64,000 bases of DNA from Takakia lepidozioides (GCA_030704615.1 CM060731.1:41044001-41108000), one strand, 5' to 3'. Positions 15,371 through 64,000 are shown, counted from the first letter of the stretch. Notes: generated by a model from the sequence alone, not told the origin. Translations and numbers: made by a program.

Positions 15371-15605
15371 GGCCCTGGCGTTGTGCAATCCGGAAATAAC
15401 GATCCTAGTGCCCTGCACCAATGCTGTTGACCAGTCATAACAAACTAGGAACGGACATATAAATCAAGAACAACTTTTGAAGAAGGGATGCCCATACACC
15501 AGAAAAGATGAGAGGAGAGAAAGCTAGACCCATCTTGATCAGATAGTCCATTAAAGTTACAAATAAGGACTTATACATGTCAAATTAACAGTTAGATGTT
15601 ACTTG

Positions 15606-22572: not shown

Positions 22573-25500
22573 GAGCAGGTTAATCACCACTGACATTAGT
22601 GTTTCTGCCATGAAAATACCCATGACCCAGAATGATTGAGTGTATAGAAGATCAACACGATTGTGTAGAAAATGGCAAAATCTTGCACAATGTTGTAGGC
22701 TTGGAATGTTTCAAGAGGAGGGTTAATATTGCTAAGAAGAGGAATGTTGACTGCCAAGTGGATGTTCAAGAAAGTACCTTGTACGGAGGGAAATTGATGA
22801 AGGTATCGTGCTGCATCCCCGCCTGTTGAGAAAAGATGGAGTTAATTAGTGCATAACCAAACGAACAGAAAAGAGAAGAAAGTGGAGAAATGATATCGAA
22901 TAATACCGATGTTGCCTTATTAAAAAGTCTCGCTGGCGGGCTTGGGATCCTAACGGACGTGTTTTGACGAGACCCCGGTATGTCCGAGGTATTCATTTTC
23001 TTCCTCGAGTCTGCTTTGTCTCTGAAGAGGGACTTCTCTCCGGTGGAACCGATTTATAGAAGAGACGGAAATGGTTTGGGGGCCCTATTCCACTTCCTTG
23101 GTGCAGAACATTGCGCCAACACTACAGGGTCGGGAAGCCGAGAAGTTGCAATTGAAATTTCGTCCTCGTTCTCGTCCAAAGGGTTGCGGAGAAGGGAAAC
23201 GGAATGGAAATTGTCCCTTAAGCACTCCACATCCTGAATGGAATTCACACTTAACGAAGGGATTACCTCGGAACAGATTTCCAATGAAGATGTCGTTTGA
23301 CGGGAATGTCACAATCCGCAGATTTTCTGGCCTGGAGTAAAACAAGAACATCAGATCAAGTACTAAGGAGACAGAGAATGAAGCAGAAATGAAGCAAACA
23401 ACGAAGCAGACAATGAAACAGAAACCTAATGTACACCGAAGCACGGACTGAAGCACTGAAGCAGAGATGAGAGTGCACAGAAGAATGAAGCAGGATCCAA
23501 ACGAATTGAATTGAGAGCAGGCCATATGAATTGAGAACATGCCAACACATGACTTAAGAACGGGCCAACACAAAACATGAAACATAAGACAAAAAGAGGG
23601 AGTTTTCAATGCTGTACCTGCTTGTGCCGGCCATTTTGGTGCCCCTGCAACCACAATCCTTCGTTTGATACTCTCTTCCGCACCTCGGCCTGCCGGTAAT
23701 TGCACTGTGCTCTCGCCTCTGCACTCGTCAATCTCCACTCGCCACTGTCCTGTCTCTCCTCCCCACTCTTCAAATTTCACCTATTTCACTCTCTCACCTT
23801 TCACCCTCTGCTCTCTGTGCACTCGGCCAAATCTGCTCTCTTTCTCTCCACGCTCCAGTGTACAGTCGCTACAAAACGCGCTCCAAAACTCTTCCCTTTC
23901 ACGCTCTCCTCTCTCAACAGTCAAGCTCCCACTAACGCAGCGCTTACGCGTAGAAAATATGAAGCCCAAAGGTTGGGCTCAAAGAGCGCACCCCTTATAA
24001 ATGACCTTCAAGAATGATCTGAACCATCGCCTCCGTCCGAAATCGAACGGTCGCGCAGCCCAAATGGATGTTCTGCCCCATCCACGCAAACTAACATTAA
24101 TACTGTCCATCCACACACATGAAATTAGTTCAACTTTTGTTCCAAATTGAATGACGAATGCACACATGTTTAGACAGACAACTCGACAGACGAATGAAAA
24201 AATGACGAAATGACTGTAATGACGCCATTGGTCAGACTCTGCAAGTTGCAACCCTCACGCTTACAAAAATCTTAAAATAGATTCAAAGCCGCCAAACCTT
24301 AACCCACACCCCAAACGCACATGTGACCACCCACGTGACACGCCTAGGCAGTCGTTTCGAACTCAATCTGCCAGAGGACATAACACTGTACCTACGGATT
24401 CGTCACATTGTATAATCATTGTCTCATTATGAGCCGTCCACAATCACTTTCGGCTGTTAGCCGCCAGGCGTCAATTTTCCCTGACAACACTCGCAAGTGC
24501 CATTTGACATACGGCTTTAAGGATAGTATATGGCCCCTCGTGTCGGGCATTCCTCGATTTAAGGTCCAGAGCCAACATAGGGACTGCCCATTTATCGAGG
24601 GATACCCAGCACGAGGGGTCCATCCCTACATTAAACATGTGCAAGCAAACAACACACGATAGAGTATTCCGCACACCTGAAATGCTCCGCCCTCGCTGTC
24701 CAATGCAATGCGCTGGCATGTAATGCCCCGCCCTGCCCAAATGTTGTATTCACTGTAACAAAAAAAATCTCAAAGTGCTTTATGGTTCACCTCCGGATTC
24801 CTCCTAGCTAATTATAATGATCGATTGTTAATGTGCAGTCCAGAATTAGTTGTGGCGATTAGCCGCATGACTTCATTTGTCCAGGCCACTTGTCAGAATC
24901 GACATCCTTCACGCTTATTCCAGAGTCTGCTGTCAGAGCCGCACGATAATGATGCCAGATATGTAATCCTACTAACGGACAAGTACGATAGAATTCAGTC
25001 TGATCGTGGCCGTTATCGTTTGTTCCATAATTGATGTGACAATGGCTGCTGTCAATAAATGGAAAATTGTGCACACTTTCAATGAAGCCGTGATTTCGCG
25101 AGTTGAAATAAGCCGTTCGATTCCGCCTTAATCCACGGTGTCCACAATCGATCCGGGAGAGAAAGCATACCACACTGCCATTGGAGCGATTCAAAGATGA
25201 AAGTTACTTGTCACCTCTATATAACATCCGACTCCACACAGCACCAACTTCCTACTGTGAACCTCTCACTTGCTTCTTTTCTCTCACGCACCTCTCTGGA
25301 CATCCTGCACCTCTCTAGACAACGTGTACCTCTTTGCCTGTCCTGCACCACTCTGCCCATAGGGTACTTCTGAAGCAGCCTGTGAGTCTCTCCCTGCTTC
25401 CTTAGTCTCGGGTGTCAACTGCACATTTCTCACAAATGATAGTATAATACTCATTTTTTTGTGTACTCTTCATGTGCACCAGCTAAACTTGCTTTTGTTT

Positions 25501-25883: not shown

Positions 25884-26551
25884 ACTAACTTCATGGGGTT
25901 CCAACTAGGCGAAAAGGTGTTTATGTCGTTTCCTGGATCTCCTTCAGTGGTTGCCTCAAGAGATTGCCTGAATGTTTCTAGGGAAGGAACTTGCCACGGA
26001 CACCACTTGTGTTAGTCTACCATTTCATGTAGAGAGCTGTTGGGGCTGCTCTGACATACTACTTTAGCCATACCGTTGTAATACGCCTTTAATTCTAGGA
26101 ACCGTTGATATCTGCGATGACCCTGATAAGCCTACTTGGCAGTTGTCCACTCACGCCTTGCCGCGTGGTAGTGACTCACATGTGATGTGGCAGCTGAATA
26201 AAGGGGTTCCTGAAAATGGAATCGGGGAGGTATTTTTGGTGTGCAAACTTGGTGTACGAGAGAGAGAGAGGTGTGTGCATGAGACAAATGTGCATGTGAG
26301 AGCAGGTTCTGGTGTGGTAACTCTGTACGTTCTGTGGTATGTGACTGACTCCTCATCGTGAGATTCGATGAGGCCTGCTCTACCGTGCTACTTCCCCGGT
26401 TACATGTGCATGCAGGAAGAGGAAGGAGAATCCCAACCATAAGCACGTTTTGTGGTGGAGATGGGGTTTACTGATCTTAACCTACCCTTGCTAACCATGG
26501 CCGCTCTTCACTGTTCTCAGCCGCGTCTCCTGTTGCGATCTTCTGTGTACT

Positions 26552-27760
26552 GTGTGTGTTGTATTGCTGCTCATCATGGTGTCTCACGGTTCTCTCCCAG
26601 TGGCTTCTGAAGTTTCAGCATCTGCTTCCTCACAATCCTCTTCCGCTGGTGTGGTCACCAGCTCCTCGTCCCCCCGTGTGCATCGCGTTCATCGTGCTGC
26701 TTTAGCAGCAACTCGTTCCCGTGACTATTGTGCTACTCCTCGCTCTACTTATCCAGCTGCTCCTCTACGTCACACAGCGCGCCCTAGTTCACCATTGTTT
26801 TCAAGGGAAGACACAGACCCGCACCCATTTGAGGAGTATGAAGAACCTTGGCATGAAGAAACGCTGGATTGGGACGTTGACCCCGTTGTTCTAATTCCAG
26901 AAGAGGTCCTAGCTCAGGTGGAACATGACCTCTACCAGCAAAAGATTCTGAATCTCCATGAACAGCAACCTCTACATGAAGATGCTCGTCGTTATGACTG
27001 CTTCCTAAACGCCATCAGAAGGGAATTTAGCGAGCCTCCTATCTTACCTCACTACAGCGCATGCAACTCGAAGACAATTGCCTGAACACGCAACATCTTC
27101 CTGTGGTAACTGACGAGGCTACATTGTGGGAACAAACCATCCTTCCGATCGCGAACATCAAACAGCTAGCTTCTCGACGACAAAGTCTCAGCTAGCAGTT
27201 ACTGGGCATTCCCGCAACTTTGATATTTGGTGACAAGGAAGCAGCTCTTACGTTTCGCAAGGGAGATTGCCTCATAAACCCTCTATGGCTTGACTTCTTT
27301 GTGCAAGGCCCTGGTGCTTTGTTGTTGCATGCAATTCGTTTTTGCAGCACTGTCTCTTTGGACTGACAGGTATCGTATTGTGACCTTCTTCATGGCATGA
27401 GCGTTGTGAACGAAAGGGTAGACACATATGATTTGATAGTCTACCCTGCTCGTATGTTCGAAGACGAATGGATAGTGCACTTACAACGAGAAGACCGCAT
27501 AGCTAACTACCCTCTGAGCTCCATACCGATCCGTGAGTGGGGTTATCCCATAGTGCATGTGGATTTTTGGCAAAAAACCCCTATAACTTGGCAGTTCCTA
27601 ACCGCTGCTGACTACAAAAGAGAAGACTTCTTGCTGCTCCGTATTAGCACCACTCAGGTGTGGCAGTTTGAATCCATCTCCAGCACGTCTTCATCATATT
27701 GCAATCCCACGGATAGACGAACGGGTACTGGAGGATTTGGAGAGGCAGGGAGACCAGCTC
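26552..27760 (+). pseudogene. Extra ORF upstream of gag in Gypsy copy 1 (unknown domain, broken)
   Basis: YDLIVYPA-x19-YP..IVHVDF..WQFL..WQFES aligns with the copy 2 ORF 35895..36809. Confidence 0.6.
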
Positions 27761-28889
27761 GTGTACCTCCTGAGAATGTAGAAGTGTGTAAGAACGCTCC
27801 TCACCCCTTTTGCTTGACATCGTCCGTTGAGATGCCTAGTACCACTAAGTCCTGGTTGCCGTTCAGATTCTCCCAAGAATACAGACAACGTGCCCATTCC
27901 CCCAGTGACCCCTCCTTTGATCAATGACTCAAAAGCTAAAAGAAAGATGGAACACCTTAATTTTAGTGTCACCAAACCTCTACCCAAGGTGACCAATGAT
28001 TCTGACAGTGAAGTGCCTTCTTTGGTTGGAGAAGAGATCATTACACCTGGCATTCATTTGGATAACTCCTCCCCCGGAGTGACAATGGGTGAGGTGTCCA
28101 GATTTCCGTCTTCATTAAAGATCCTTATGAATCAGGCTGTGGCTATGGATGCTGTCCAGAAACCTGTGGCAGTACCCAAACCCCATGCCACTGGTCCCAA
28201 GGTCCAAGCTCAGGCCTATCCAGAATTCAGATTGGGAGAAGACTATGATAATTTTCTAGAACTGTTTGAGAGTATAGCCTTGTTGAATGGAGTCCCTGAA
28301 GATTTCAAAGTTCATTCCTTCAAAATGGCACTTAAGGGACAAACCAGAACCCTACTCAATGCTGATTTAGTGGGAGAAAGGAGTCCTTCGTGGAAGCAAG
28401 TTTTGGACAGCGCCACCAAGCTGTTCAAACCTGATGAGCTTCCCTTGGAGACATTTGGAAAATTGTACAATAGGAAGTACAAATAAGGTGAACCTTTGTG
28501 GCAATACTACTTAGACATCAAGGTAGGAGCTGCTTCAACAAGGGTGATGGCCAAGAAGTGGTCATCCCTTTGACTACTATGCAGTACTCTCGCAACATCA
28601 GCAGAGCCAACCTGTCTCAGATCAGGGCTACACCCCTCCTGCTACGCCATCCGCTTCCTCCGGGAGTAATGTGATCCACCTCTACCAAATCCCCGACATT
28701 AATAGCCTTCGGCACTGGTTAAAGAGGCCTCCCCGCACCTCCTTCCAAGAGCCTAAGGACGTGTTAAGGAAAGTGACGGTAGGTTAGTCAATTGGCAGCA
28801 ATTCATGCAGATGGGAGCTCCTAAGGACTCTCTTCTCCAATGGGCCACACCTGTTGTTCGACAAAAAGGGGGTCAGCCAATACCTGTAA

Positions 28890-29165
28890 GAGATAACACT
28901 ACCTTGCTACGTGCTCAAGCTGATTTTATCATCCCTGCTATGTGCCAGAAAGTTGTACCTACAGGGCAGGCTTTCATGTCCAGAAGGACACTATCTTGAA
29001 ACAGTGGGATGGCAACGTTTGGCTCTCCGGAAACATTCCATGGTTGCTCCACTTGTTGTTGATAGAGAGTTTAGAGGGGAGATTAAACTACTAATAGCAA
29101 CCCTGAACGCATTCCGGTCACAGTCCGAAAGGGGCAAGTTATGGCTCGTATTTCTGCAACTCCTA
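28890..29165 (+). pseudogene. dUTPase-like domain N-terminal to RT, Gypsy copy 1
   Basis: Reconstructed across two frameshifts: LLRAQADFIIPAMCQKVVPTGQAF-CPEGHYLETVGWQRLALRKHSMVAPLVVDREFRGEIKLLIA-PERIPVTVRKGQVMARI. Confidence 0.8.
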
Positions 29166-32100
29166 TTAGTGACATTGAGGACATCCAGGAAGGATTCTCC
29201 CTTCAAGAGATGGGAATAGTGAATTTTGATGTAGACGCAGTCTCTGCCTTTGCAAAGTATTTTGCATCCCCTCTTGCTGAGAATGATGACACAGTAAATG
29301 AGACTCATGTCAAGGAGGTGCTAGAAACTGTGAATATAGGAGACTTGGAAGAACACCAACTTAAGAGGCTTGAACATTTGAGCAGACGTAACATTGATGT
29401 GTTTAGCAAGGGACCCACTGATCTTGGAAGAACCACCCTCGCTGAACATGATATAGAAAGTGAAGGAAAACCTGTCAAACAGTATGCCTACCGTGAAAGT
29501 GTGAAGGAACACACCTTTATACAAGAAGAGATCAAGCGCATGTTGGATGCTGGAGTTATTCGCCCCTTTGTCTCACCTTGGGCTAGCCCTATTGTCCTAA
29601 TAGGAAAGAAGGATGGTGGGATCAGATTCTGTGTAGACTTCAGGCGTCTCAATGCCATAACTAAAAGGATGTATACCCTTTGCCAAGAATTAATGAAACA
29701 GGTTGGATTTGGCATCAAGTTTCTGGCAGGTACCATTGACAGAACAATCTAAGGAAAAAATAGCATTCGTTTGTCGCATGGGCATGTTTCAGTATGAGGC
29801 TATGCCGTTTGGCCTTTGCAATGCCACAGCCACCTTCCAAAGGCTCATGGACGTGGTTCTTGGAAACCTGAGGTGGGAATGTGCTTTAGTTTATATAGAT
29901 GATATTAACATCTATTCATCATCCTTTGACAAGCATCTCATGGATTTACAGCGTGTTTTCTGTAGGCTAAGAGCAGCTGGTCTGAAAGTCAAGACAAAGA
30001 AATGCGAGTTCTGTTTTTCAGAGCTCAAGTTTTTGGGTCATTGTCTTACTGCTGCTGGCATTAAGCCTGATACTACAAACCTGGAAACAGTTTGGAATTT
30101 CCCCATGCCCACTGACAAGCGATGTGTGAAGTCCTTTCTTGGATTAGCTTCTTATTACATGAGGTTCATCAAGGACTTTGCTAAGATAGCTAATGCTCTG
30201 ACCAAGCTTCTGTCCAAGGACGTCAGGCTCTCTTGGGGGATGCAACAACAACGTGCATTTGAGAGGTTGAAGGTGGCCCTCACCACTGCACCAGTCCTGG
30301 TTTATCCTAACTTCTCTCTTCCTTTCAGATTGCAAACCGATGCTAGTGATGTAGCTAACTCTGCCATCTTATGCCAAGAGAGTGATGGCAAGGAACAAGT
30401 TGTTGGTTATGCTTCTCGCAAACTTGACAAACACGAGAAGAACTATTCCATTACCGATAAAGAAGGTCTGGCTGTTATCTTTGGGGTTAAACATTATCGT
30501 CAATATCTTCATGGCAGCAAGTTTGTGATTGAAACAGATCATCTACCACTTAAAGCCATGAAGCTCCTCGTGAGCTCAATGAGCGTTTGGCTTGATGGGT
30601 CTTGACTCTTCAGGCTTATGATTATGATATTGTTTATAAGAAAAGAAAGGAAAACACCAACGCTGATGCCTTGACTCGCATTGAACCTCATGTCCCTGTA
30701 CCTTACAGCAGAATCGAGGATCTGCTAGTTGACCTTTCAGCCACTGACCCGGCTGCAAATCCTGATCAGACCACAAACTTTTATTCCTGCATGAGTGTTT
30801 CTCATTTGGATAAGGTGTTGGGCTGGGATTTGCTTCTTAGGGATGGCACTTAAGGTCACTGTTGGTACTGGCACTGCAGGCAAGGGATTCACTCCTGTGA
30901 GGGAACATGAAGTTGCCTTCTAACCTGAATTTGGGCTGGTTCCCGCCTCTCTTGTATGCTGAACCATGTTCTTTAATTGATGCTCTCTCACTGGTACTAT
31001 TATGATTTATAAGCCTTGTCTGTTCTATAGTAAGTTGTCCTTCTGTAAGGGTTCAAGGTATAATGGCATGGAGACCCCAGATGCATGACACTCCTTGCTA
31101 CTTGGTTCTAACCCACGAAGATGATGGCCTATGTATGGCAGACATGGAGGATCTTCTGCATGAGGCACTACTCCATAAGTGTCAACACGGTGTCACGCAG
31201 GCAGGAATAAGTGACCTTGTTCGACGTCAGGTTCTCTACAACCAACACTTGCACGTAGTGAGGGAAGGAGTCATGTACAGAGTGTTCAAGGGTGTCCTCC
31301 CAGCCTTATGGAAGTGCCAATGAAGAGTTCTCTCCTTGTAATGTTTGCATTGTATCACGACTCAACTTTTGCTGGTCATTTTGGGGTGAAGAAGACTGTT
31401 GCCAGGATCAAAGAGAAGTTCTATTGGAAAGGCATGTGTAAGGATGTAGCCTTGTATATCTCCCTGTGTGTGGGCAGCAATGCCAAAGCCAAACTTCCTC
31501 GTGCCCCGGTGGTTCTCGAGTTGCAGTCCATTCCCGTAACCTCTGCATTAGCTAGGGTGGGTATGGATCTCGTAGGACCTTTGAATCTCACGTCGAAGGG
31601 CAATAGTTATATTATTGTAGCTACGGATTATCTGACCACAAGTGGGTAGAGGTCCAACCACTGGTGTCTAAGGATAGTGATGGTGTAGCTCAGTTTTTCT
31701 TTGATGAGATAATCTTGAGGCACGGATGTCCTTTGGAAATCCTTACTGATCAGGGCAAGGAATTCTGCAATATTTTGATGTTGATGATATGTCACAACAT
31801 GGGTATTCATCAAGCTACCACTCGACCTTATCACCCTCAATGCAACGGACTCACGGAGCGCTTCAATCAAACCATGTGTCTCATGCTGGAGAAGTGTGGA
31901 GGTCTCACCCAGGAATGGGATGTGCTTCTTCCTCCTCTCATTTTTGCTTTTAGGACTGCTGTGCATGCCAGTACTCGCCGCACTCCCTTTGAACTTCTCT
32001 ATGGTCGTCCTTGTGTCTCTCCTATCCATCATACTCCTCTCAACCCGGTGATTGCGGAACCAGAAGATTGGGAATTATTTGTTACTGATCTGCTGGCTCA

Positions 32101-33199
32101 TCATTCTCGGATCATAGATGAGGCTAAGTATAATATCTCCAAGGCTCAGCTAGCACAAGCCAAGCAGTATAATAGGCGAGTGGTTTATTCTTCCACATTT
32201 GTTGCTGGTCAAACAGTCTGTATCAAGGTGCAGCATGGTGCAATCGAGTCCAACGGTAAGACTCGCATTGAAGGGCCCTATCTGATTCATGAAATGACTG
32301 CTGGTAACAGGGCTAGATTGTTGCCTCAGCATCCTTCAGTCAAGGAGATCCCTGCGGAAGTGTCTATCGCTGATCTGTTGCATTCGAGACTACAGTTTGA
32401 TCTTAACATGTGTGAATGTGGAGGGAAAGACAGTGGAGATGTCTCCCAAGACGAAGGCTCGACAATGATCCCGGAGCTTTTTTGAAGGTATCCAAGCTGT
32501 GGCTTCATTCCAATTTAGCTCATGTGCTGATTTCACAGCACTTACAGCATTTCAAGCCACTGGGCTGACCATATCAGAAAGCAATTGTCTGTTGGTCTAA
32601 CTGGGGATAGGTAACATCGATGACACGGAATGATCACATCAGCACCACCAGAGATGAAAAGAAGAACAAACCCAAGCCCTAGCGATTGGGAAATGTGAGA
32701 GCTCGCTGTGTATTCACTTTGCTCTTAACTCCACCTATACTCCTGCATCATTGCAAGGAAACACACCATTTGGCAAAGTCCATCGGTGAAGACTCTGTTT
32801 GCGTCTCTATCATCCCCTCACAAACAGTTGCAAGGGTTCCTAACAAATAGGCAGAATGAGGAGCTAAACAACAGACCTCTCTAAAATCATTCCACTTCCA
32901 CACGACCTCGAGTTGTGGGGCTAAAGAAAAGATAGACACCGAAAAAACTCAAGTCAAGCTTACATAACTTACCAGCAAATACTTCAGAAAACAGAAGAGG
33001 AAAGACATAGCAAGGCGTTCCTAGAGTGACCCGCTCTCTGGCCTAGGTCATGCACGCGAGGGGGTTCACATGGAAAGAGGCCCTAACCCCTCTGACTGGC
33101 CTTTCCACATGTACTCCTGTGGCTGCTAAAAATGTTACAGGAGCAGTGGCTGAGGAAAACAGTCGTCTTATTATTTCCTAACAATTGCATAATATGCAA

Positions 33200-34120
33200 A
33201 TATCAGTTGGCATTGAGAGCATTGTTAACACAAAGAAATGTGATGTGGTTGGGCTTCAGCGCTTCCCACATTATTTGCTCATACATCTCCAAAGCCTCAA
33301 TCCCACACCCATCTTGTTGCACTTACCCTGCAATCATGGTACTCCAAGACACCACATCTTGTTCAGCCATGTTGTCGAACATTCCCTTTGCATCTTTGCT
33401 GCACCTACATTTGCATACATGTCCACCAGGGGAGTGTTCAGAATGACATCTGGTACAATTGCAGCTTTGACGATGTCACCATGGACTTCTGTGCCCTTTC
33501 CCAGAGCTGCCAGGCTCGCGTTGGGCATACATGGTCCACCAGGGCATAGTTCAAAATGACATCTGGTACACACACCAGCTTTGACAATGACACCATGGAC
33601 CTCTGCAGCCATTTTCCAGGGCTGCCAGGCTCCCATTTGGCATAGGTGTCCACCAGAGCAGAGTTCAGAATGACGTCTGGTACATTTCAGCTTTGACAAT
33701 ATCACCGTGGACCTGTGTGTCCATTCCACAACTGTCAGACTCACATTTGGCATACATGTCAGCAAGGCAGTGTTCAAAATGAGATTTGGTACAATTCCAG
33801 CTTTGACAATGTCACCATGGACCTCTGCTCCCTTTTCCAGGGCTGCCAGGCTCGCATTTGACATACATTACACCAGGGTTGTGTTCAGAATCACATATGG
33901 TACGTTCCAGCTTTGACGATGTCACCATGGCCTCTACTCTCTTATCTAAGCTGTTAGGCTCACATTTGGCATACATGTCCATGAGGGCAGTGCTCAGAAG
34001 GACATCTGGTACAATTCCAGCTTTGACAATGTCACCATGGACCTCTTTGCCCAGTTCCAGGGCTGCCAGGCTTGCATTTGGCATACATAGTGACAAAGGC
34101 TTGAGGCTCAAACATACCTG
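33200..34120 (-). pseudogene. PLS-class PPR pseudogene with a ~112-bp tandemly amplified unit (~6 copies)
   Basis: Repeated ASLAALExGxEVHGDIVKAGIVPDVILNTALVDMYAK with frameshifts; ends in DVVSWSTMIAG-like sequence. Confidence 0.85.
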
Positions 34121-34950
34121 AATTGAAACAGTCGATTGCTGATCTTGTTAGGTTGTGAACACCTGTGACTTCTTAGTGGGGATGACAGTGTTGCTTGGGA
34201 TCAACTTTGTCATGACTCCTAGTATTCCTCTTTATGGACTGGCCCTGCTAGACAAAGATTGTACTCTATTAACTGCTCCATATGACCACGTCCGTCGCCC
34301 TCAATGGGGATATCAACCATCTCCTAGCCAGATGCAGGGTTTCTAACCCTTAGAGTATGGAGGATGTGCGATAGCAAGAGCTAGTACATACCAATTAAAC
34401 ATCATGCTAGAAACCACAGGTTGCTGCAAAACTGCTCATCCCCCGATTTGGCTAAAGACAGGGAGGGGGATTGTGCTGAGCAGCTGAGAGAGAGTCTCTG
34501 TCAAAAGCCAAAACTGATACAATGAAAACATACGGTAGACCATGAGCGATGGGGGCACATAAAGCGGATGTGGTTGCAAAAAACACAAATGACCCACACT
34601 CACCTCGTTTTCCATCTGCGTCATCATTTTCCGCCATCCCCGTCCCTCTCCCGCCTTTCATATTCTTACCGCGTCTGCATATCCTTCTAGGTACTTTCGT
34701 CTTCCGCTCTCTCACAAAATACACTCACACACAAATTTCCAGGAGTTTCTCTCTCCTCCTGTTACATTGGAGAAAAATGCACACCTCGAAGATTCGTTAG
34801 CCTACACGCTCGATACCTTCATTTGGCTAAGGTAGTTTCTAAGTAGGTTGTTAACGGGACAGGTCTACTCTAAAACGGTATTAACGGGGAATGGCATTAA
34901 TGGGGAAGGTACATCAGGAGAAAAGCACCTCTGCGTGGTCTCTCCCTTAA

Positions 34951-35777
34951 CCCTTAAGTTCCCAAGCCTTTTTTTGACTTTTTACCAATTTTGGGTACCC
35001 AGCTGCAGTAAATTGCCCCTAGAAACCTACCAAAAATCATCAGGAGATTCCAACCTTATAGCAATGGGCCCAGCTCATTTATGCATGACATACCAAAAAA
35101 TGAGCCAAGTCTACCGTGGAAATTATGAGATTATAGCGTTGGCCCCGGACCTCAACTATCAGGTCCCAAAGAAAAAGTGAGAAACAAATAGGTTTGACCA
35201 AATCAAAACCTAGCTTTATCCAATTTTGCTTGCCCCAAGACCCACCATTTCCAAATCACTAGTGGAGTGGCTATGACCCCACTAAATTGCAGGGCCAACT
35301 GATTTTTGCACCTATGGTTGCTTTGCATGCAATTACATGGGGATAGAAATCTCAAAATTGACAAGAGAAAATGTGCCTCCAAATGAAGTACTTTTTTTTC
35401 TACAAATTTTTTAAAAGCCAATGGTGGATGTGTGTATGTAATGCTCACAAACCACAGGTGAAGTGCTTTTTCTAAAATTGCTAATTTTCTGCCAAAAATG
35501 ACCTTTGGAGTGCAATATGTTTTGGGCTTGTTTACCTGCCACGTCAACGGTCAACAAGCCCTTTTCAGGCCCAAAACGTAAATGAGAGATCTAAGATATT
35601 TTTTTGTAGGTCGTAGTTTTTTTTTTTCTTTTATAATTTTGTTTTTGCACCATACTCGAGACAAATCCCTTGTCATTAAAGCTTCAGGAGCGGGCCCCAT
35701 CAGATTAGATCTGCAAAAATTAGGTCAAACTGCAAATTCAAAGTGACCCGATTCAAGTCGCTTGGGAATTTAAAGGG
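34951..35777. mobile_element. piggyBac-like non-autonomous DNA transposon A
   Basis: TTAA|CCCTTAAGTTCCCAAGC ... GCTTGGGAATTTAAAGGG|TTAA: TTAA on both sides and a 17-18-bp imperfect TIR. Confidence 0.75.
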
Positions 35778-35940
35778 TTAAGGGAGGAGCCAATAAACAA
35801 GAATATGGCACATATTGTAGTTCATCCTGCAATGGCTAGATTCCCTCTACCTACCTTTTCGACATTTGGATGAATAGACACTGGATGATGACCGTTGGAA
35901 AAGGGCTTGGATGAAATCAGTTGGAAACAATCTATTTTAA

Positions 35941-36809
35941 AAGAAACTCCCGCTGGTCATTTTGAGTCGATTTTTGCCAGCATCGAGCGTGCTTCGGTTG
36001 ATCCTAGCCTGGTGGTTGAAGTTGATTATCCGCCTCTTGGTGCTCCGGTTGAACGCTCTGAATTGGTCCTCGACACGCCTTCTGATCACTGGGTGGCTCA
36101 GCTTGAGTTGACTGCTGCATTGGAGGGTCTGAAGCCCACCTATACTCTGCAAGAAGAAGCAGAACAAAGGCGAAAGTGCATCCAAGCGTTTGAAGGGGCT
36201 AGACCGGCCAAGGCCCTGCAACGTTTTTTTGTTGCGGAGATAGCACGCAAGCTTGCCAAAGACAAGCTCTTGAAGGGTTGGTGGCTCTCGTGGGCTGAAG
36301 TTGGTGTTCTGCAGTTCACAATAGTTGGGGAGGTTTCTGGCGAGTGCGAGAACTTCCTTCCGCCCAATTTACCCAGTGCGCATCGTCTGTGGGAGCTGGT
36401 GAAAGGTGGCAGTTCTCTTGTCTTGGCCAACCTGAGGCCCACCTGGAAACCTGATTACAATGTGGGCATAACTTGGGATGACCATGTTGCAAGCATTCCC
36501 GTCTCTCGCTTTCCTCATACTGTGCATGATATTTTGATTTTTCCTGCTATTGTGTGTAGACAGGAAAGATTGGGTTACTACTTGCCTGGATTTCTTGTTA
36601 CTTATTATCCGGTGCATACACTGCTTGCCAATGAGAAGTTTATCCGCTCCATTGTTCGAGTGGCTTTCTCGCTCAAAGTGGACGAAGAACTGTGGCACTT
36701 TCTGGGTGAAGGTGTTTACATGCTTCACAAACACAGATTCATAAGTGGCTATTGCATCAAAGATTGGGAGTCCAAATTGCGGCCTGCACGATCCTCAAGC
36801 AGAAGGTAA
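35941..36809 (+). CDS. Open extra ORF (~290 codons) of unknown function upstream of gag in Gypsy copy 2; true start probably deleted
   Basis: Uninterrupted frame; C-terminal HDILIFPA-x19-YP..IVRVAF..WHFL..WES is homologous to the copy 1 ORF. Confidence 0.65.
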
Positions 36810-37569
36810 CCACTTGTTTTTAACAAACAGACTACAATGCCTGTCACTACTCGGTCTGGCAAGGAGCCATGGAATGTACTAGATGAATTGGATAATGTGG
36901 ATCTTACTAATGATGTGAAAGTTACACCCTTCCTGATCCTATGTCTGAAACCTTGTCTCCCGAGGAGCCACTGCCAGGTAATGATACCAGTCCGACCCAA
37001 GGGGTCCCTCCAGCCTCTGATAATGTGCCTAACCTCAATATTCAGGGCATTTGTGATGCTATGGCTACGTTGTCTAGTTGTCCTGCTCAAGTCTACCTAC
37101 AAAAGCATCATTATCGCAATGAGAGGCATATGGTAGAGATGATGGATGAGCGCATGAGGTTTAAAAATGCTAAACTAGGGAAAAGCTGTCTACCTGTTGT
37201 TCATTCTACTCATCAACATACTTCCGACTGTTCTCATGGGGTTGCCATGGTTAAGGGTGGCTTTACAGAGGCCTCTCCTACATTACTGGAGGAGGTTAAA
37301 ACCTTACAAGAAGAGCTGCACACTCAGCTTCAGGCTGTCAGGGCAGAAAGATCCTGGAGGGCCGCACCTGCCAAGCCTCCTCCTGTTGACTCTCATCGTG
37401 GCCACACTCAGACTGGCCCACGGTATGAGGTTCAAGGTAAACGTGTGGCCTGTTTCATTAATTGTGGGTCACTTGAGCACTGGACCCGCTTCTGCACCTA
37501 TGCCGCTCTTGTCCCTGGTATGATTGAAGAACACAAACGAATTCAACGCGAATAGAGGGGCAAACAGCC

Positions 37570-37608
37570 TTTAAATGAACCGGATCGCTTGCGAAAGGGC
37601 CAAGCGGT
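37570..37608 (+). promoter_or_regulatory. Putative -1 programmed ribosomal frameshift signal (gag-pol)
   Basis: T TTA AAT heptamer in the gag frame (PLN), 7-nt spacer, stem ATCGCTTG/CAAGCGGT; pol (37651 frame) is -1 relative to gag (36941 frame). Confidence 0.65.
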
Positions 37609-38280
37609 TAGTATCCCACAAACCCTGCAAAGGATGACTCCATTGTTTCTGTGATGTTGTCCAATGAATTCAAATTAATGCATTGTGAAGCCAATAAGAA
37701 GCTTGGGAGGGAAAGAGTGCACCTTCTCATGACTCAATGTCACATATGGCACCTATCGTTTCATGTGCCTGTTGACAAAGGCTGTACCATGTCTGCTGTT
37801 CCATTGTCCGTGGTTCGACTACTTGGTCTCAAACTCACTCCAGCCACAAGTCTGCAGGTGACCATTGCAAATGGCACGCGTTATGAACCCCTAGGTTTGG
37901 TCACCATCCCTATTAAGGTCAGTTACAAGTCGGTCACACCGACTTGTATCGTTACCATTGGTGAGCAGTTGCTATTAGGCTTGGATTGGATGTGTGCTGT
38001 AGGGCCCAAGATTGATGTGGTTGAAAACATCATGTGGCTTGCCAGTGGCAGCTCCTCACCCCACAAGGTGCAGCTTAACTCTGTCTCCTTGCCCGCTGGT
38101 TGTTCCACTGCGCATCTCTCCCACATGCGAACCATTGTTGTTGAAACAAGACGACAGACTGGTGAGCAATACAACTGGACACGTTACTTTAACTTTGCCA
38201 AGACAACTCATTCCACCTTGTATCAGTGGCAGTCACCTTTGCCTAGTAAGAAGAGTGGCCCTCCCATTCCAATCCCAGCT

Positions 38281-38552
38281 AACACCACTCTTCTTCGCAA
38301 TCCCACTGACTTTGTTATATCTGCCTCCTCCCAAAGGATTGTTTATCTTGGCCTCACCTTTCTTTGTCCACAAGGTCGTTATCTTGAAGTCGAGGGATGG
38401 AAACGCTTGATGCTTTCCAAACATTGCTTGATTGCATCTGGGGTGCTGGATCGGGGCTTTCAAGGGGAGCTCAGACTTCTTGTTGCCAACCCAGAACGCA
38501 TACCTATCACCATCCGCAACGGTTAGGTCCTCGCACGACTCACTGCCACCCC
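38281..38552 (+). pseudogene. dUTPase-like domain between protease and RT, Gypsy copy 2
   Basis: LLRNPTDFVISASSQRIVYLGLTFLCPQGRYLEVEGWKRLMLSKHCLIASGVLDRGFQGELRLLVANPERIPITIRNG*VLARL, in frame with the protease. Confidence 0.82.
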
Positions 38553-41500
38553 ATTGATAGATTTAGGAGAGGTCCAACATGCTTTAAGATTTGCTGACAT
38601 TGGCCTGTCTGATGATCCTGTAGATCAATTGCATCTCCTGGCACAATCTGTGGCTGCACCCAAGGTCTGTCCCCTCACTCCTGCGCAATCTGCTCATCTT
38701 GACTAGGTCATGACTGATATCAAAATGGGCTCTAGTCTCACTGAAAATGAAAGGTCTCGTCTATATCATGTTATTCGTGACAATCTTGATGTTTACAGTG
38801 CTGGTTCTCATGACTTGGGTTGTATCGATGTTCTCCATCATGACATTGTCACTGAGGGTAGCCCTGTCAAACAATATGCTTATAGAGAAGCGTCAAAGAG
38901 TGCGAAATCATGCAAACCGAACTGACCAAGATGCTTGATGCAGGAGTTATTAAACCCTCTATTTCCCCCTGGGCCAGCCCCATCATGTTGGTTGCCAAGA
39001 AAGATGGTACCACCCGTTTCTGTGTTGATTTCTGACGTCTCAATGCCCTAACCAAAAAGGATGTATATCCCTTACCTCGCATTAATGATACTTTGGATCA
39101 ACTCAACGGTGCCACTCTCTTCTCTTCCTTGGATCTTGCTGCGGGCTTTTGGCAGGTTCCACTCACAGAGTCAGCCAAGGAGAAAACTGCGTTCACCTGT
39201 AAGATGGGTCTCTTTCAGTTTGAGACCATGCCTTTTGGATTATGTAATGCCACTGCCACCTTTCAACGTCTCATAGATGTTGTTCTAGGGAACTTGCGCT
39301 TGGAATGTGCATTGGTATATGTTGGTGACATCAACGTTTACGCAGTTGACTTTGATTCTCACATGCGGGATCTGAAGCGCGTTTTGTGCAGGCTCAGAGG
39401 AGTACACCTCAAAGTGAAAGCCAAGAAATGTGATCTGTGCATGACGGAGCTTCATTTTCTTGGCCACCTTCTCTCAGCTAAAGGCATTAGCCTTGACCCT
39501 ACCAAAATTCAGGCTGTCTGGGAATATCCCACTCCACATGACAAAAATTGTGTCCGTGCTTTCCTTGGGTTAGCCTCTTACTATCATCGTTTCATTAAAC
39601 ACTTTGCTCACATTGCCGTTGCGCTTAATCAGTTGTTATGCAAAGATGTTCGATTTCTTTGGGGCAGGTCCCAAATCACTGCTTTTGAGAAACTCAAAAT
39701 CGCCCTCACTAGTGCACCCATTCTGGTCTTTCCTGATTTTTCACTACCCTTTATTCTTCAGACCGATGCCTCTGACTTGGCTGTTTCAGCTATTCTATGC
39801 CAAAAGAGAGACGGCAGGGAACATGTGGTGGCCTATGCTTCCAGGCGGTTAAATGAACTATAGCATCACTGATAAAGAGGGCTTTGCAGTCATTTTTGGG
39901 GTGAAACATTTCAAGCAGTATCTCCATGGTTGCCCCTTTGTTATTCAGACTGATCATCTTCCATTGAAGGCTCTCAAAACCCCACAAGCACTCTCGGGAC
40001 GCTTGGCTCGGTGGTTACTTACTCTTCAAATGTTCGGGTACGACATTGAGTACAAGAAAGGCAAAGCCAACAGCAATGCCGATGCTCTCACATGCATTGA
40101 GACTAAGTCCTCTGCCCCTTATGTTACCTTAAATGACCTTGCAAACTGCTTACCATCTGGTGCTTCACCCTTGCCTTCTTCCTCTCCTGACGGATCCGAT
40201 TTACTTGCTTTGTTTGCCACTGTTCCTTTTCTCCCACCTGATCTCATGTCTGAATGGGATTTGCTTTCATTTTCTGCTGCTTGAGGTTGGTTTAGAGTGT
40301 TGTCCTGTCACTGAGGTCATATTCTAGGTATGATATCTCTCTCTCTTCTCTGATTGAACTGTGCTTTTCTTCTTCTAGTGCTGGTTTTGGCACTGAATCC
40401 TCTCCATAGGGATATCTGCTTATGTGCTTCATTATCCTTGGTTGCATCTTCATGAAGTCTCCCTTGTCATTCAGTTGAGCTAAAAGCTTCCCATAGAGAT
40501 CACCGAGGCGGACACTCTGTTATGCTCACACTAACCCAAGGGCTGGCTATGGAAGTTGCAACCATGGATGATCTACTTCACCAAGCCCTCCTCCAGAAGT
40601 GTAAGACCAACACTCATCTGTCGGGCCTCTCTTCCCGTCTCCTCAGGCAAGTAAGCTATCATCTCCCTTCTCATAGGGAGCATGAAGGTAAGTTGCTTAA
40701 GGTAGTTCATGTTCATGGGCAAGAGACTGTTGTGGAGGTCCCTACTAGGAGCTCTATGCCTGCTTTACATGAGCTTTACCATTGCTCACTATATGTTGGT
40801 CATTTAGGCATTGACAAAACTGTCAAGAGACTCCAAGAAAAGTACCATTGGAAGGGGTTAACTAAGGATGTGGCAGATTTCATTTCTAAGTGTGTTCCAT
40901 GTAAGTCCAAAACACTGCTGCCTAGGACCATCGCTCCTCTTAAATTACAACCAATTCCGGTGACTGAGATGTTTGCCCGAGTTGGTCTTGATCTTGTTGG
41001 GCCCCTCAAAACTACGACTAAGGGCAATAGCTACATTGGTGTGGCTATTGATTACATGTCTAAGTGGATTGAGATCCGACCATTGGTTGCTAAGGACAGT
41101 GACGAGGTGGTTCAATTCTTCTTTGATGAAATCCTGCTACGCCATGGTTGTCCCCTTGAAATTTTAACTGATTAGGGTACGGAGTTTTGTAACCAGCTGA
41201 TGGAGGTTGTGTGCTTTAATTTAGATGTCAAGCATCGCTTGACTGCTCCCTACAACCCCAGTGCAACGGGCTTACAGAGAGGTTCAACAAACCATGTGCC
41301 AGTTGTTAGAAAAGAACGGGGCTCTCATTGAAGAATGGGATATTACTCTACCCATTCTCATTTTTGCCTAAAGGACCTCGGTACATGCTAGAACTCGTTT
41401 TTCCCTTTTGAATTATTGTATGGCCGCAAGGCTCGCACCCCTCTTCATGTCCCTGTGCTTCAAACTTAGGTTGAGGAGCCCATCATATGGGAAGACTTTC

Positions 41501-43084
41501 TTACTCACCTCACTTCTCATCGTTTGCGTTTATTAGAGACTCCTAAACACAACATTCAAGTTTATCAAGTTGCTCAGGCTAGAAATTATAACCGTAGGGT
41601 TGTTTACTCTGAAATTTTTTCTCTAGGCCAAACTGTTTGTGTTCGGTTGCAGCTTGGCAAACAGGTACCAAGTCCAAGATGCAGATCGATGGGCCTTATC
41701 TGATTAGTGCGATTCTGCCTGGTCGACAATACCGTCTCTTTCCTCAACATCCTTCTACGACGGAGATTGCAGGGACTGTTCATGTTTCTCAACCTGTCCC
41801 TTCTAAGCTGTAGTTTGATTTGACCTGCCTCAACGTGGAGAATCGTCATGTGGTTTTAACTCCCAAGAAGCGTGCTCGACTTGATTCTGATTCAGTTGCT
41901 ACCTAGACTTACTCATGACACTATCTTTATTCAGCTACTTCCTACCTAGGATCCATCTCATTTCTCTTTGTAGTTCTCCAGGTTGCACACCTCACAAGAT
42001 CGGGTTTTTCCCCGACAAGGTTTTGCCCTTCACTCAAATCGCAGAGCAAGGTTTTCCTTGTTGCGGTTTTTTCATCCTATTTTGGTGTGACCTTGGGCGA
42101 CACTGCTCCCTGTCTTGAGCATAGTGTTTGTTAGATAGCTCGCTGGAGCTCGCTTCTCTGTGTGCCAGGAGGCTTTACATATGTAATGGCTAGATTCCCT
42201 CTACCTACCTTTTCGACATTTGGATGAACAGACACTGGATGATGACCGTTGGAAAAGGGCTTGGATGAAACCAGTTGGAAACAATCTATTTTTAAACTAA
42301 GTATTGTCTTCTGTTAACAGCTAGTTTATCTCTAAAATTGAATAAGGTGGCGTCCTATCTGGACAGACACCCGGATGGAATCCAAATAACCAATCAGGGC
42401 TTGCCACTTGGTTAGATGAGATTGTGGGTCTTCGTTTATAAAAGAGATCAATACGACGCTTAAGGCGGCGGTGTACGTTTGGTGTGAAAACCCTAGTGTA
42501 CCTGTGTGTGAGTTTTGGATGAAGAAGGTGTGAGTGAGGATGTGCTGTTAATCCATGTGAATGATTCTGACTCCTCTCCGTTGGATCCTGCCTATCTCGC
42601 TAGCCTGCTTTACCGAGTACACATCCCCGTGATAGCTCAATACCCGTAGAAGAAGAAGAATAACGGGGTGGGCGAGAATCTGGCTTTACAATCCTCTGAT
42701 CTACTAAAAAACCTTCCAATCATATATTTCTTATCTAGCTCTCATACTAGACCAAATGAATGGATGGATGTTCATGATCAAGAAGATTGTCAACAAGCAC
42801 TGTGGCTATATTGTGATAACCAGTGGTGGTGTTCATCAATAGAAATTGCCACTTGGAGGGGTTAGGTGACCTTTGGTACTTCGATTCTGATCGATTTTGC
42901 AGTTGCAATCCACTAGTTTCACAGTATGCCACATATCTGTCATCCACCTTGTTGTTGAAGAGGATGAACCTACAACTCACCTACCATGGAGGGCTAACTA
43001 CCTATAACTAATAGCCTTCACCAAGCCAGCTCTATGTACCCTCCTACTTGTTCCTAGAGTTAGGTGATAGATAGGTTACCTCGG

Positions 43085-43639
43085 TTTCAACTTTAAAGTG
43101 ATTTGGGTCTATGACTAGTAAGATGTTAACAATATCATAACTATATCGTTCTACTACTGTCTTGACGTCTTGACCTATCATAACTGTTACTCTATTAGGT
43201 AAGGGTTGGTTCGAATCTAGGATACCAAATCTTACTGCATATGCTAAATTTTGGCAGGGATGGTACAAGTTCCATGAGCATTGTGTATGTAGTGTACACA
43301 AGGATGTAGCACCAATTGCCTTTAATTAGCTTTCTTCCTTCTAGAGGAGGTAACTGAAAGTTTCAACTTTAAAGTGATTTGGGTCTATGACTAAGATATT
43401 AACAATATCATAACTATATCCTTCTACTACGGTCTTGACGTCTTGACCTATCACAACTGTTATTATGTACTCTATTAGGTAAGGGTTGGTTTGAATCTAG
43501 GATAACAAATCTTACTACATATGCTAGATTTTGGCAGGGATGGTACAAGTTACATGAGCATTGTCTATGTAGTGTACAAGGATGTAGCACCAATTGCCTT
43601 TTAATTAGCTTTCTTCCTTCTAGAGGAGGTAACTGAAAG
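43085..43639. repeat. ~277-bp tandem duplication (2 units)
   Basis: TTTCAACTTTAAAGTGATTTGGGTCTATGACTA...TAGAGGAGGTAACTGAAAG at 43085-43360 and 43361-43639. Confidence 0.92.
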
Positions 43640-44895: not shown

Positions 44896-45365
44896 TTCCA
44901 TGGTTTAGTCAAACATCCGTACGCAGTCTACTGTAGGGAGAGGGAGGGGAGCTCAACAGCCAGTATGTATTCGACTATGACCAGAGGACTTTCGCTTAGT
45001 AATATGGCCACCTCAGCGGCATTCGCAGGTCTGGTTTACCTCCATAAGGAAAGGGAGGACGTGGGTCCGGCAGTTGCTATCCTTGCTGTCCGGAGAGAGA
45101 GAGAGCGACTATATAATATGATCTAGACGCTTGCGGCTTGTTTCGAAAGTTTCCTTCTCCACTCGCATCGTCGGGATCAACTACGCATTGTGGATTGTTC
45201 AAAACAGCTAGCACTACCCTGCTGCCTGGGTCTTCCATTGTTTAGTCGAACATCCGTACGCAATCTACTGTAGGGAGAGGGAGGGGAGCTCAACAGCCAG
45301 TCTGTATTCGACTATGACCAGAGGACTTTCTCTTAGTAATGTGGCCACCTCAGCGGCATTCGCAG
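44896..45365. repeat. ~135-bp direct repeat pair
   Basis: TTCCAT.GTTTAGTC.AACATCCGTACGCA...GGCCACCTCAGCGGCATTCGCAG at ~44896-45028 and ~45233-45365. Confidence 0.88.
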
Positions 45366-46333
45366 TACCCAAACCTCCTCGGAATTTGAGGTTTAGCTCC
45401 GTTGGGAGGCCGGTGAGGCAGGTGTGCCCAGCTTGGCTACCAAAGATTGTCCAAACATTACCAAAGATCGCCATGACTGTGATAGTTCCCAGGTAAGCGT
45501 TGTTCTTGTACGAGTCTATGTTGCAATCCTACCTTAGTCTTTCCTCCTTCTCTAGAGAACTGTGGTCTGTTCCCATGCTTTCTTGTGCTAGCGAAGCCAA
45601 TGCCAATTTGTGCGATGTCCAAAACATTGGAACTGAAGTTACACCAACGATGAATCTGCACGAGTTTGAGCAATCATCTACCAGTGAGTACAAATATATC
45701 TAATCCGTATGTGAAGGCAGTTCAAATGAGAATAATAATGAAACATGTGTACAGCGTCCCCCTATATGTACCTGAAGATATGTGCTACCGGCGGGACCTA
45801 CATTCCTCTATGCAGTTCCAATATAACTCATATCACCCTTGAGCACGTACTACTCTATACAAGGTCAATGTAAATGGATGAGATCAACTTGAAGCGGTCC
45901 AAACATTTTGAACATTCTTTTCTAGTTGCAAGCCGGTTTCCCTTACAAGTATGAGGGAAAACTGTGCGCTCAGACCAGCTATTTCACACAATTGTTAGAC
46001 TGCACAGATTGAGATTTTACGTGAATTCAAACCTGCGAGAGTGCTTAGCGCTACGTTCCTGGTTGAGGCATTGGGTGATCATTTCTCTACCATCCTGAAA
46101 GTAGGAGCTCACCCCTCCCCAGCAATTCCCCGGGACTGCTCCTCGGCTCCATCTCACTAGTTTTTTTATGAAAATGTCTGAACATTATCTGTAATTACCC
46201 ACTGGGAGAGTTGTAAGAGTTGAAGAGACATCATGACCAGGAGAGTTGAAGAGACATCAGCAGCTCTCCCAAGGGTCTTTTGCACCATTCTATAAATGCA
46301 TTGGTCAGCCGCAGTACTTGTTATTAACTGGTT

Positions 46334-47945: not shown

Positions 47946-48599
47946 GAACGTTTCAGGCACACATCTAGCGCCTGCGGGACGATTCTTGCTAATAACTATC
48001 TAACATCTCTGAGCTCGAGCTAATATTATCTACATTTGGAAGATGTCCGACCATCGGTATGTGGATTTCCAGACAGATTCTTTTGGAGCAAACCTCCTCG
48101 TGTAGCTCGCGCCACAAACAATTCTGCAGGAATTCATGCGTTTGGTCCCTTGCTTACAATACATTGGATTACTTATAGTAAGGGGGGCGATTATGTTGTA
48201 TGTAACTTTGGGTTCTTTCGATCATGCAGCCCGGCGATCATTTGTGATCATAAAGTAAAGTTTCCGTGTTTCTTTCTTGCTGCTCCCGATGGCCTTTCCC
48301 CGTTGTGTGTCGGTCATTTGACATACCTGTGCACGCCTCAAAACTGCACAACGTTTTTCTGCTTCTGGATCCACACGAATGAACATTCACACTTTGCACC
48401 CACTTTCGTACTTCTTTACACAGAGTGACGAGAGATCTGTAGCATCAAAAACGTACTCGGAACTTCTGCAGACCTAGTTTCAAGTTTCACTCTCCTTCAA
48501 ATAACTCATTGACATTTTCCTAGCCATCACTCGATCAGCGTGAAGCTCCCAAGGATTTTATGTTTCAAACATCGCTCTCGATTTCCGTGGTGAACAGGA

Positions 48600-63929: not shown

Positions 63930-64000
63930 CTGTGTGCACATCTGATGCATCGGACACATTAATTAGCACAGAATAACTTACAACTAACTAATTTTCAGCA

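Follow-up and report, generated by a model that had tools for sequence, protein, structure and literature searches.

What becomes of an enzyme fold in a retroelement polyprotein once most of its catalytic motifs have gone? The question is raised by a 64,000-nucleotide stretch of the Takakia lepidozioides assembly (GCA_030704615.1 CM060731.1:41044001-41108000), which is referred to here as the window and whose positions are counted from its first letter. The window contains two Ty3/Gypsy copies on the plus strand, E1 at approximately 27.8–32.5 kb and E2 at 35.8–42.3 kb, and in both of them a stretch resembling a trimeric dUTPase (deoxyuridine triphosphatase) lies just before the reverse transcriptase (RT). 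An earlier reading of the sequence, hereafter the first-pass annotation, regarded this stretch as a selected, repurposed domain, either non-catalytic or of altered specificity, rather than a product of decay. That view is supported by the predicted fold, by eight degenerate relatives, by a ratio of nonsynonymous to synonymous differences per site (pN/pS) of 0.39, and by the variation among genomic copies. We put the probability at roughly 0.6 that selection has kept the domain as a structural or binding module of Pol, one that is non-catalytic and likely forms trimers.

A dUTPase homologue upstream of the reverse transcriptase

In both elements, the Pfam domains RVT_1, RT_RNaseH(_2), Integrase_H2C2, and rve occurred in this order, and the Pol order of RT, RNase H, and integrase is that of Ty3/Gypsy (Metaviridae) elements. 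The two copies could be aligned with tblastx from 28829 (E1) and 38215 (E2) to 32462 and 41879, amino acid identity being 46–51% for the dUTPase-like part, 67% for the core of the RT, and 54–63% for the integrase; upstream of 28829/38215, tblastx gave no alignment. In E2, the domain occupies 38257–38562 (+) in a single frame, with an in-frame TAG at 38524–38526, and a remnant of motif V around 38590–38610 extends it to approximately 38610. When this region was read through with the stop as X, it matched the Pfam dUTPase family (PF00692) with 28.2 bits (gathering cut-off 22; E = 1.8e-6; profile positions 19–106 of 129), whereas the open reading frame (ORF) ending at the TAG scored 18.9 bits, which is below the cut-off. 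A phmmer search of PDB chains with the E2 domain returned 52 matches at E ≤ 10 (best E = 6.1e-5). Among these, 45 carried informative names, all from the dUTPase/dCTP-deaminase superfamily; three matches were dCTP deaminases, four had uninformative names, and the other named ones were dUTPases. The nearest ESM Atlas clusters were also dUTPases, with a score of 0.95.

The E1 domain (28871–29221, +) was recovered by three-frame translation, tblastx, tblastn, and its motifs. It is split by two compensating frameshifts into three frame pieces (28871–28948, 28947–29099, and 29096–29221), none of which matched Pfam when taken alone. Four of the five relatives tried (P0111, P0112, P0113, and P0123; the relatives are described below) matched it over its core in tblastn. 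The middle piece is entered by a +1 shift that is reversed 150 nucleotides later, and such a compensating pair is unusual for random decay.

At the level of sequence comparison, homology of the domain to dUTPases is shown beyond chance, and the statement of the first-pass annotation that a dUTPase-like stretch stands before the RT in both elements was borne out, with the correction that a linker intervenes. Two other origins were considered and dropped: a fragment of a host dUTPase gene, given that the domain lies in frame within the Pol of several diverged elements, and a pararetrovirus, given that an integrase is present.

Relatives share a patterned loss of motifs

A HMMER search of all 1.84 billion protein cluster representatives (E ≤ 1e-3) matched 36 proteins, with a best E-value of 1.7e-12 at 34% identity. 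Eighteen of the 36 were scanned in Pfam, and the sequences of all 36 were read. Canonical motifs were present in 27 of them, and one, P0120, was a repetitive protein without a dUTPase match. The remaining eight (P0111–P0115, P0123, P0132, and P0133) were short retroelement fragments with a degenerate domain, derived from JGI/IMG, Logan, and ENA records. In P0111, a protease with the triplet DTG precedes the domain; in P0115, the end of a protease precedes it; and in P0123, it lies between the end of a protease and the start of an RT. P0112 was present on 22 contigs, the longest of which was 97 kb.

For the motif counts, seven multidomain or tandem matches and P0120 were left out, giving 20 canonical rows for comparison with a family of ten (E1, E2, and the eight relatives); the denominators are the rows that cover each motif (8 or 10 for the family, 18–20 for the canonical set). 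The motif I Asp was found in none of eight family rows, with Leu in its place in E1 and E2, as against 18 of 18 canonical rows. Likewise, the basic residue and Ser of motif II (Arg, Lys, or His followed by Ser) were absent from all ten family rows and present in all 20 canonical rows; Trp replaces the basic residue in seven of the ten, followed by Lys in E2 and by Gln in E1. The motif IV Gln was retained in only one of eight members (P0113), compared with 19 of 19 canonical rows, and the four closest members (E1, E2, P0111, and P0112) have Arg at this position. A motif V of the GFGS type occurred in none of eight family rows but in 18 of 20 canonical rows, the two exceptions being truncated. 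In contrast, the motif III Asp was conserved throughout (10/10 and 20/20). The aromatic position three residues after it is occupied by Phe in E1 and E2, by Tyr in seven relatives, and by His in one.

These counts bear on several details of the first-pass annotation. The motif changes that it quoted as common to the two elements are all present in the translations: NTTLLR in both, and GWKR/GWQR, DRGFQGE/DREFRGE, and VLARL/VMARI in E2/E1, respectively. The substitution of Phe for Tyr in motif III is real in E1 and E2, but it is no meaningful loss, because 3 of the 20 canonical rows also have Phe at this position and the relatives keep Tyr. Motif V, described as absent, has indeed lost GFGS; however, it is remodelled rather than deleted, since a hydrophobic-Gly-hydrophobic remnant stands at the site in all eight covering rows, mostly after an acidic residue or Asn. 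Across these rows, the degeneration is patterned, is common to members far beyond the window, and is accompanied by newly conserved residues, even though the ten members have diverged to approximately 25–35% identity. In a quick tree of degenerate and canonical rows, the seven rows with the Trp, which include E1 and E2, formed a group with a Shimodaira–Hasegawa-like approximate likelihood ratio (SH-aLRT) of 94.

When the domain by itself was the query, a word-indexed search for longer proteins gave no match. When the end of the E1 domain was combined with the start of the RT as a query, 109 Gypsy proteins were obtained at 30–68% identity, with fish, sponge, and oomycete sequences among them; PF00692 was found in none of the 109, and phmmer with the E2 domain returned nothing from them at E ≤ 10. 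No confirmed locus of the relatives was found in metagenome contigs (searched with a four-row alignment and with P0112 alone) or in viral contigs (four-row alignment).

A separate case was encountered among the database sequences. P0121, a protein of 334 amino acids from an ENA contig, has a Pol beta-barrel domain (PF22936) and, behind it, a dUTPase in which none of the five motifs is disrupted. It resembles a further retroelement whose dUTPase is apparently active.

The predicted fold is a dUTPase barrel that may form trimers

The structure of the E2 domain was predicted with AlphaFold2 from an alignment of 32 rows, consisting of the window rows, the eight degenerate relatives, and 20 canonical dUTPases. 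The model had a mean predicted local distance difference test (pLDDT) score of 83.8, with residues 11–110 at 87–98. A Foldseek search of the PDB with this model gave 216 matches at E ≤ 0.001, and all those listed were dUTPases; the top matches had E = 4e-6, a probability of 1.00, and a root-mean-square deviation of 1.8 Å over 92 columns. In BFVD, the named Foldseek matches were mostly viral dUTPases, including those of lentiviral Pol and badnavirus polyproteins. The E2 domain is thus predicted to adopt the jelly-roll beta-barrel of trimeric dUTPases, and both checks suggested with the first-pass annotation, PF00692 and structure prediction, gave the same answer, with a score above the cut-off in the former and a dUTPase fold in the latter.

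Three copies of residues 190–325 of the intact relative P0111 were modelled together and gave an interface score (ipSAE, interaction prediction score from aligned errors) of 0.56 (median of three runs), compared with 0.00 for the best control. In calibration, the mark for this score was attained by 20 of the 30 proteins whose solved structure is a same-chain pair, compared with 1 of the 23 whose solved structure is a single chain. The runs agreed in at least 48% of contacts, and the partner pLDDT was at least 61. In the P0111 model, the Trp segment of one copy (residues 241–245) contacts the motif III hairpin of another (255–259), which is the site of the active sites in canonical enzymes. These models would fit a domain that keeps the trimer.

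Selection on the domain and variation among copies

To compare selective constraint along Pol, pN/pS was calculated between E1 and E2 from Nei–Gojobori proportions on ungapped tblastx codon alignments. The domain gave a value of 0.39 over 101 codons (bootstrap 0.28–0.52), identical to that of the integrase (0.39) and close to that of the RT start (0.41); the RT core was lower, at 0.27, and the linker behind the domain was higher, at 0.79. The same DNA read out of frame, which served as a control, gave 0.94–2.37. Because synonymous sites are saturated, these figures are rough and the true ratios lower. Purifying selection on the domain, comparable to that on the integrase, is shown by this codon comparison.

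Other copies in the host were sampled from four runs of one sample, which contained 27–33% of the words of the E2 stretch. In these runs, 51, 108, 139, and 113 contigs, respectively, were placed on 38150–38750 at a likeness of at least 80%, most of them 90–99% alike, and the E2 family is therefore highly multicopy. Of 191 differences between E2 and the other copies, 40 were listed, and half of these (20) fell in the domain. Seven of the 20 were near-fixed in the other copies and all seven were nonsynonymous; at the position of the E2 stop, the other copies have a sense codon for Gln, as does E1. The near-fixed differences, the stop included, are private damage to the copy of E2 in the window. 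The other 13 were polymorphic among copies, and nine of them were synonymous. Among the 40 listed differences, no copy variant restored a canonical catalytic residue.

Functional interpretation of the domain

In trimeric dUTPases, retroviral ones included, activity goes with the presence of all five motifs, and the attacking water is coordinated by the motif III Asp (PMC4531489). Against this background, the elements belong to a Ty3/Gypsy lineage that carries a trimeric-dUTPase homologue just upstream of the RT. Four of its five motifs are without their catalytic residues: motif I lacks its Asp, motif II its Arg/Lys-Ser, and motif V its arm in every member, and motif IV lacks its Gln in every member except one. 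From the absence of these residues, dUTP hydrolysis is predicted to have been lost. The barrel, the motif III hairpin, and, likely, the trimer would have been retained under selection, while the former active-site cleft may have been rebuilt, with Trp standing where motif II had Arg, Arg where motif IV had Gln in the four closest members, and a hydrophobic-Gly-hydrophobic arm substituted for GFGS. Such a cleft would no longer turn over dUTP but would accommodate the C-terminal arm or some other ligand.

An alternative is that the domain is still an enzyme, either a dUTPase with unorthodox residues or a hydrolase of altered nucleotide specificity. The nucleophile-positioning Asp of motif III, to which water coordination is ascribed (PMC4531489), is invariant, Phe at the Tyr position occurs in 3 of 20 canonical enzymes, and P0113 keeps the motif IV Gln, all of which would fit residual activity. 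However, no family member has the Asp of motif I, the Arg/Lys-Ser of motif II, or the arm of motif V, whereas the canonical rows covering these motifs do, two truncated rows for motif V excepted; active retroviral dUTPases have all five motifs (PMC4531489), and the product of bovine immunodeficiency virus (BIV), with partial motifs, has no detectable activity (PMC4261571). We consider continued catalysis quite improbable. The opposite extreme, that a captured dUTPase lost its function and has been carried along without selection, would attribute the shared changes to common descent. Since E1 and E2 are homologues, common ancestry by itself would lead one to expect shared residues; the two copies in the window have decayed, and the linker behind the domain is near neutral (pN/pS 0.79). 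Even so, a neutral relic is very improbable: at saturated synonymous divergence, the domain has the pN/pS of the integrase; the degenerate form has lasted in ten members down to approximately 25–35% identity, with newly conserved residues; the listed polymorphism of the E2 family in the domain is mostly synonymous (9/13); and an insert of approximately 110 codons, if unselected, would probably have been lost or scrambled.

The main rival is that the domain acts as a non-catalytic sensor rather than a scaffold: the rebuilt cleft between subunits would bind either a deoxyuridine nucleotide or a protein of the host or the element. The new conserved Trp, the Arg, and the remodelled arm cluster at the former active site, next to a hairpin that keeps its Asp in 10/10 members and an aromatic residue in 9/10, and the contact between Trp segment 241–245 and hairpin 255–259 of another copy in the P0111 trimer model would place them together. 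Action independent of hydrolysis has been reported for phage and herpesvirus dUTPases. Regulatory roles of enzymatically inactive herpesvirus dUTPases (PMC4531489) provide a precedent of the same kind. Nevertheless, the residues that hold the triphosphate are gone, the evidence fits plain structural conservation as well as it fits binding, and any candidate partner is putative; a sensor in this specific sense is therefore unlikely.

Several observations weigh against the reading of the domain as a selected non-catalytic module. Full conservation of the motif III Asp and of the nucleoside-binding hairpin could point to residual catalysis or nucleotide binding instead of a purely structural role. 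The alignments used for the fold and trimer predictions include canonical dUTPases, so that the models could lean on solved structures. The trimer was modelled on P0111, which is 34% identical to E2, rather than on the domain in the window, and its score may only mirror likeness, because trimeric dUTPases have already been solved. In the quick tree, the branch that places the ten degenerate rows on one side has weak support (SH-aLRT 74), and the trait columns themselves were included. The synonymous sites of E1 and E2 are saturated (pS 0.73–0.83), and the codon alignments were picked by amino acid similarity. Finally, no RNA run was listed among the runs sharing E2 words, and both copies in the window are dead. 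With these points taken into account, a selected, non-catalytic module remains our preferred interpretation. A more specific version of it is that a clade of elements, in a bryophyte-like plant and other sources, made a captured dUTPase into a pseudoenzyme by keeping the barrel and rebuilding the cleft as a new binding site needed for retrotransposition; this we offer tentatively, as a proposal with somewhat less than even chances.

Organization of E1 and E2

E1 begins with an upstream ORF at 27818–28486 (+), identified from the ORF list, which is presumed to be gag; it could not be aligned to E2 and had no Pfam match at E ≤ 0.01. No protease was found in E1, either by tblastx against E2 or by tblastn with the relatives. 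Behind the dUTPase-like domain, the RT lies at 29345–30041 (+), supported by RVT_1 (E = 7.8e-24; residues 3–115 of ORF 29697–30605) and by 67% identity to the E2 RT over 243 codons in tblastx. The RNase H follows at 30234–30724 (+; RT_RNaseH_2, E = 2.4e-35, and tblastx), and the integrase, with its H2C2 zinc finger, core, and C-terminal part, at 31341–32462 (+; Integrase_H2C2, E = 2.6e-15; rve, E = 8.2e-7). The ORF translation shows a GPY motif in the C-terminal part. No flanking repeat was detected around E1 with blastn.

E2 is bounded by two copies of a 115-nucleotide direct repeat at 35828–35942 and 42182–42296 (both +), found by repeat search, blastn, and alignment. The copies are 97% identical, and the 5′ copy overlaps the start of the first E2 ORF. 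This length is far below that usual for the long terminal repeats (LTRs) of plant Gypsy elements, and the repeat is possibly a very short LTR or an LTR remnant; no target-site duplication was recognized at E2. The presumed gag region (35892–37555, +) consists, in the ORF list, of two ORFs (35892–36809 and 36914–37555) without a Pfam family match, the first of which had no usable ESM Atlas match. The likely aspartic protease at 37738–37992 (+) matched Asp_protease_2 (E = 3.3e-4) and gag-asp_proteas (E = 3.9e-4) below the Pfam cut-off in both cases, and its ORF was colinear with P0111 in BLASTP (33% over 286 amino acids; E = 4e-50). The active-site triplet is DKG in E2 and DTG in P0111, whose protease scored above the Pfam cut-off. 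The position of the domain between protease and RT given in the first-pass annotation is shown for E2 and for the relatives P0111, P0115, and P0123; in E1, no protease was detectable.

The dUTPase-like domain of E2 (38257–38610, +), identified by PF00692, phmmer against the PDB, AlphaFold2, Foldseek, and its motifs, is followed by the RT at 38737–39467 (+; RVT_1, E = 5.8e-25, and tblastx), which contains a frameshift and a stop; the linker between the domain and the RT is approximately 60–90 residues long. The RNase H is at 39660–40140 (+; RT_RNaseH_2, E = 3.8e-21; RT_RNaseH, E = 3.6e-18), and the integrase, again with zinc finger, core, and C-terminal part and with several frameshifts, at 40762–41879 (+; Integrase_H2C2, E = 6.5e-15, and tblastx). 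Pfam detected no chromodomain in E1 or E2. Because each contains stops and several frame changes, both elements are dead. A sigma-70 promoter scan and a tRNA scan gave nothing of use for a eukaryotic element.

Other features of the window

Between E1 and E2, at 33407–34088, there is a tandem array of approximately six copies of a 110-nucleotide unit with 76–80% matches, the minus-strand translation of which presumably resembles repeated PLS-type pentatricopeptide repeat helices; an ORF of 177 amino acids at 33334–33867 had no Pfam match. Just downstream of E2, short tandem duplications with units of approximately 276–280 and 337 nucleotides and 92–95% identity were found at 43084–43639 and 44896–45365. 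A remnant of a third Gypsy-type element was recognized at 11176–11658 and 12251–12349 (both on the minus strand) by a weak RT_RNaseH_2 match and a tblastn match of the P0123 RT start.

The window also contains protein-coding sequences of other kinds. Two exons of a plastid-type stearoyl-acyl carrier protein desaturase lie at 46328–47999 (+; FA_desaturase_2, E = 2e-68 and 8e-81). For the second exon, the top named match came from the moss Ceratodon purpureus, at 80% identity, with other plants at 52–72%, a pattern that suggests a land plant, perhaps a bryophyte, as the host. A NIN-like protein gene with GAF_NLP, RWP-RK, and PB1 domains in two long exons is located at 61277–63962 (−). ORFs at 14351–15463, 19619–20257, and 21704–22579 (all −) encode a RING finger, DUF4218, and a NIF-type phosphatase domain, respectively; DUF4218 is a domain of plant transposase-associated proteins.

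Comparison with known systems and significance

Rare extra domains of retroelement Pol reveal limits on replication in a given host. If the domain described here is needed for transposition, it would offer a tractable case of an enzyme fold redeployed in a mobile element, as well as a marker for classification; if it is not, the result is a modest addition to the catalogue. Should the pseudoenzyme proposal prove true, no conserved pseudoenzyme domain would have been described before in the Pol of Metaviridae, and the classification of plant elements would be missing an extra polyprotein domain.

The lineage was called unusual in the first-pass annotation, and this stands insofar as our literature search yielded no account of plant Gypsy elements with a dUTPase-like domain. 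The layout, on the other hand, is known from fungi and rotifers, and the accompanying list of retroelement dUTPases had omitted the bdelloid rotifer Gypsy-like elements, the plant badnaviruses, and the inactive relic of BIV. In fungi, a dUTPase lies between protease and RT in PosPlaTy3-5 of Postia placenta, with related cases in Phanerochaete chrysosporium and in Tuber Tmt1 (PMC2864245), and the same order, protease–dUTPase–RT, occurs in the Gypsy-like elements Juno, Vesta, and TelKA of bdelloid rotifers (PMC5408684). E2 resembles these elements in that its dUTPase-derived domain stands between the protease (37738–37992) and the RT (from 38737). The hosts differ, being a plant here and fungi or rotifers for PosPlaTy3-5, Juno, Vesta, and TelKA, and the likeness is one of layout. 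Whereas the fungal and rotifer domains are described simply as dUTPase in the available text, four of the five motifs here are without catalytic residues and new residues are conserved.

Among described plant elements, the closest by description are the non-chromovirus lineages of REXdb, such as Phygy of Physcomitrella and Selgy of Selaginella, which are likewise compact plant Gypsy elements without a chromodomain and with a non-seed-plant-like host (PMC6317226). Phygy measures 7.7–10 kb, as against approximately 6.5 kb between the repeats of E2 (PMC6317226). In the available text of this survey of plant LTR elements, the string "dUTP" does not occur, and the row for Phygy lists no extra polyprotein domain (PMC6317226). 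A dUTPase-fold domain in the polyprotein of a plant reverse-transcribing element is otherwise known from badnaviruses, where a trimeric dUTPase domain is present in ORF3 of cacao yellow vein-banding virus (hereafter CYVBV), piper yellow mottle virus, and Dioscorea bacilliform virus (PMC5649073, PMC9963457). Badnaviruses differ in being pararetroviruses without an integrase and in having the domain upstream of the protease (in CYVBV, between its zinc finger and protease); moreover, their domain is termed a trimeric dUTPase with predicted activity (PMC5649073, PMC9963457).

Herpesvirus dUTPases are more remote in setting, being monomeric proteins of large DNA viruses with a duplicated fold that are encoded by free-standing genes and are not domains of Pol. 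Herpesvirus dUTPase-related proteins are known as "DURP". The point of likeness is that in them, too, the fold has been redeployed for non-enzymatic roles (PMC4531489). A parallel is found in BIV and Jembrana disease virus, whose Pol similarly keeps a conserved dUTPase-derived piece without most of the motifs (PMC4261571, PMC4531489). The dUTPase-related part of BIV is inactive and yet required for replication (PMC4261571). However, the BIV piece, in which activity is undetectable, is truncated to approximately 74 residues and is situated between RT and integrase, whereas the domain described here comprises the whole barrel (approximately 100–120 residues), lies between protease and RT, and is predicted from its motifs to be inactive. 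The protease–dUTPase–RT architecture and the inactive relic have thus each been published already, not together in a plant Gypsy element; what appears to be new, as far as our literature search reached, is a dUTPase barrel of full size that is conserved yet depleted in motifs and belongs to a Gypsy lineage of plants.

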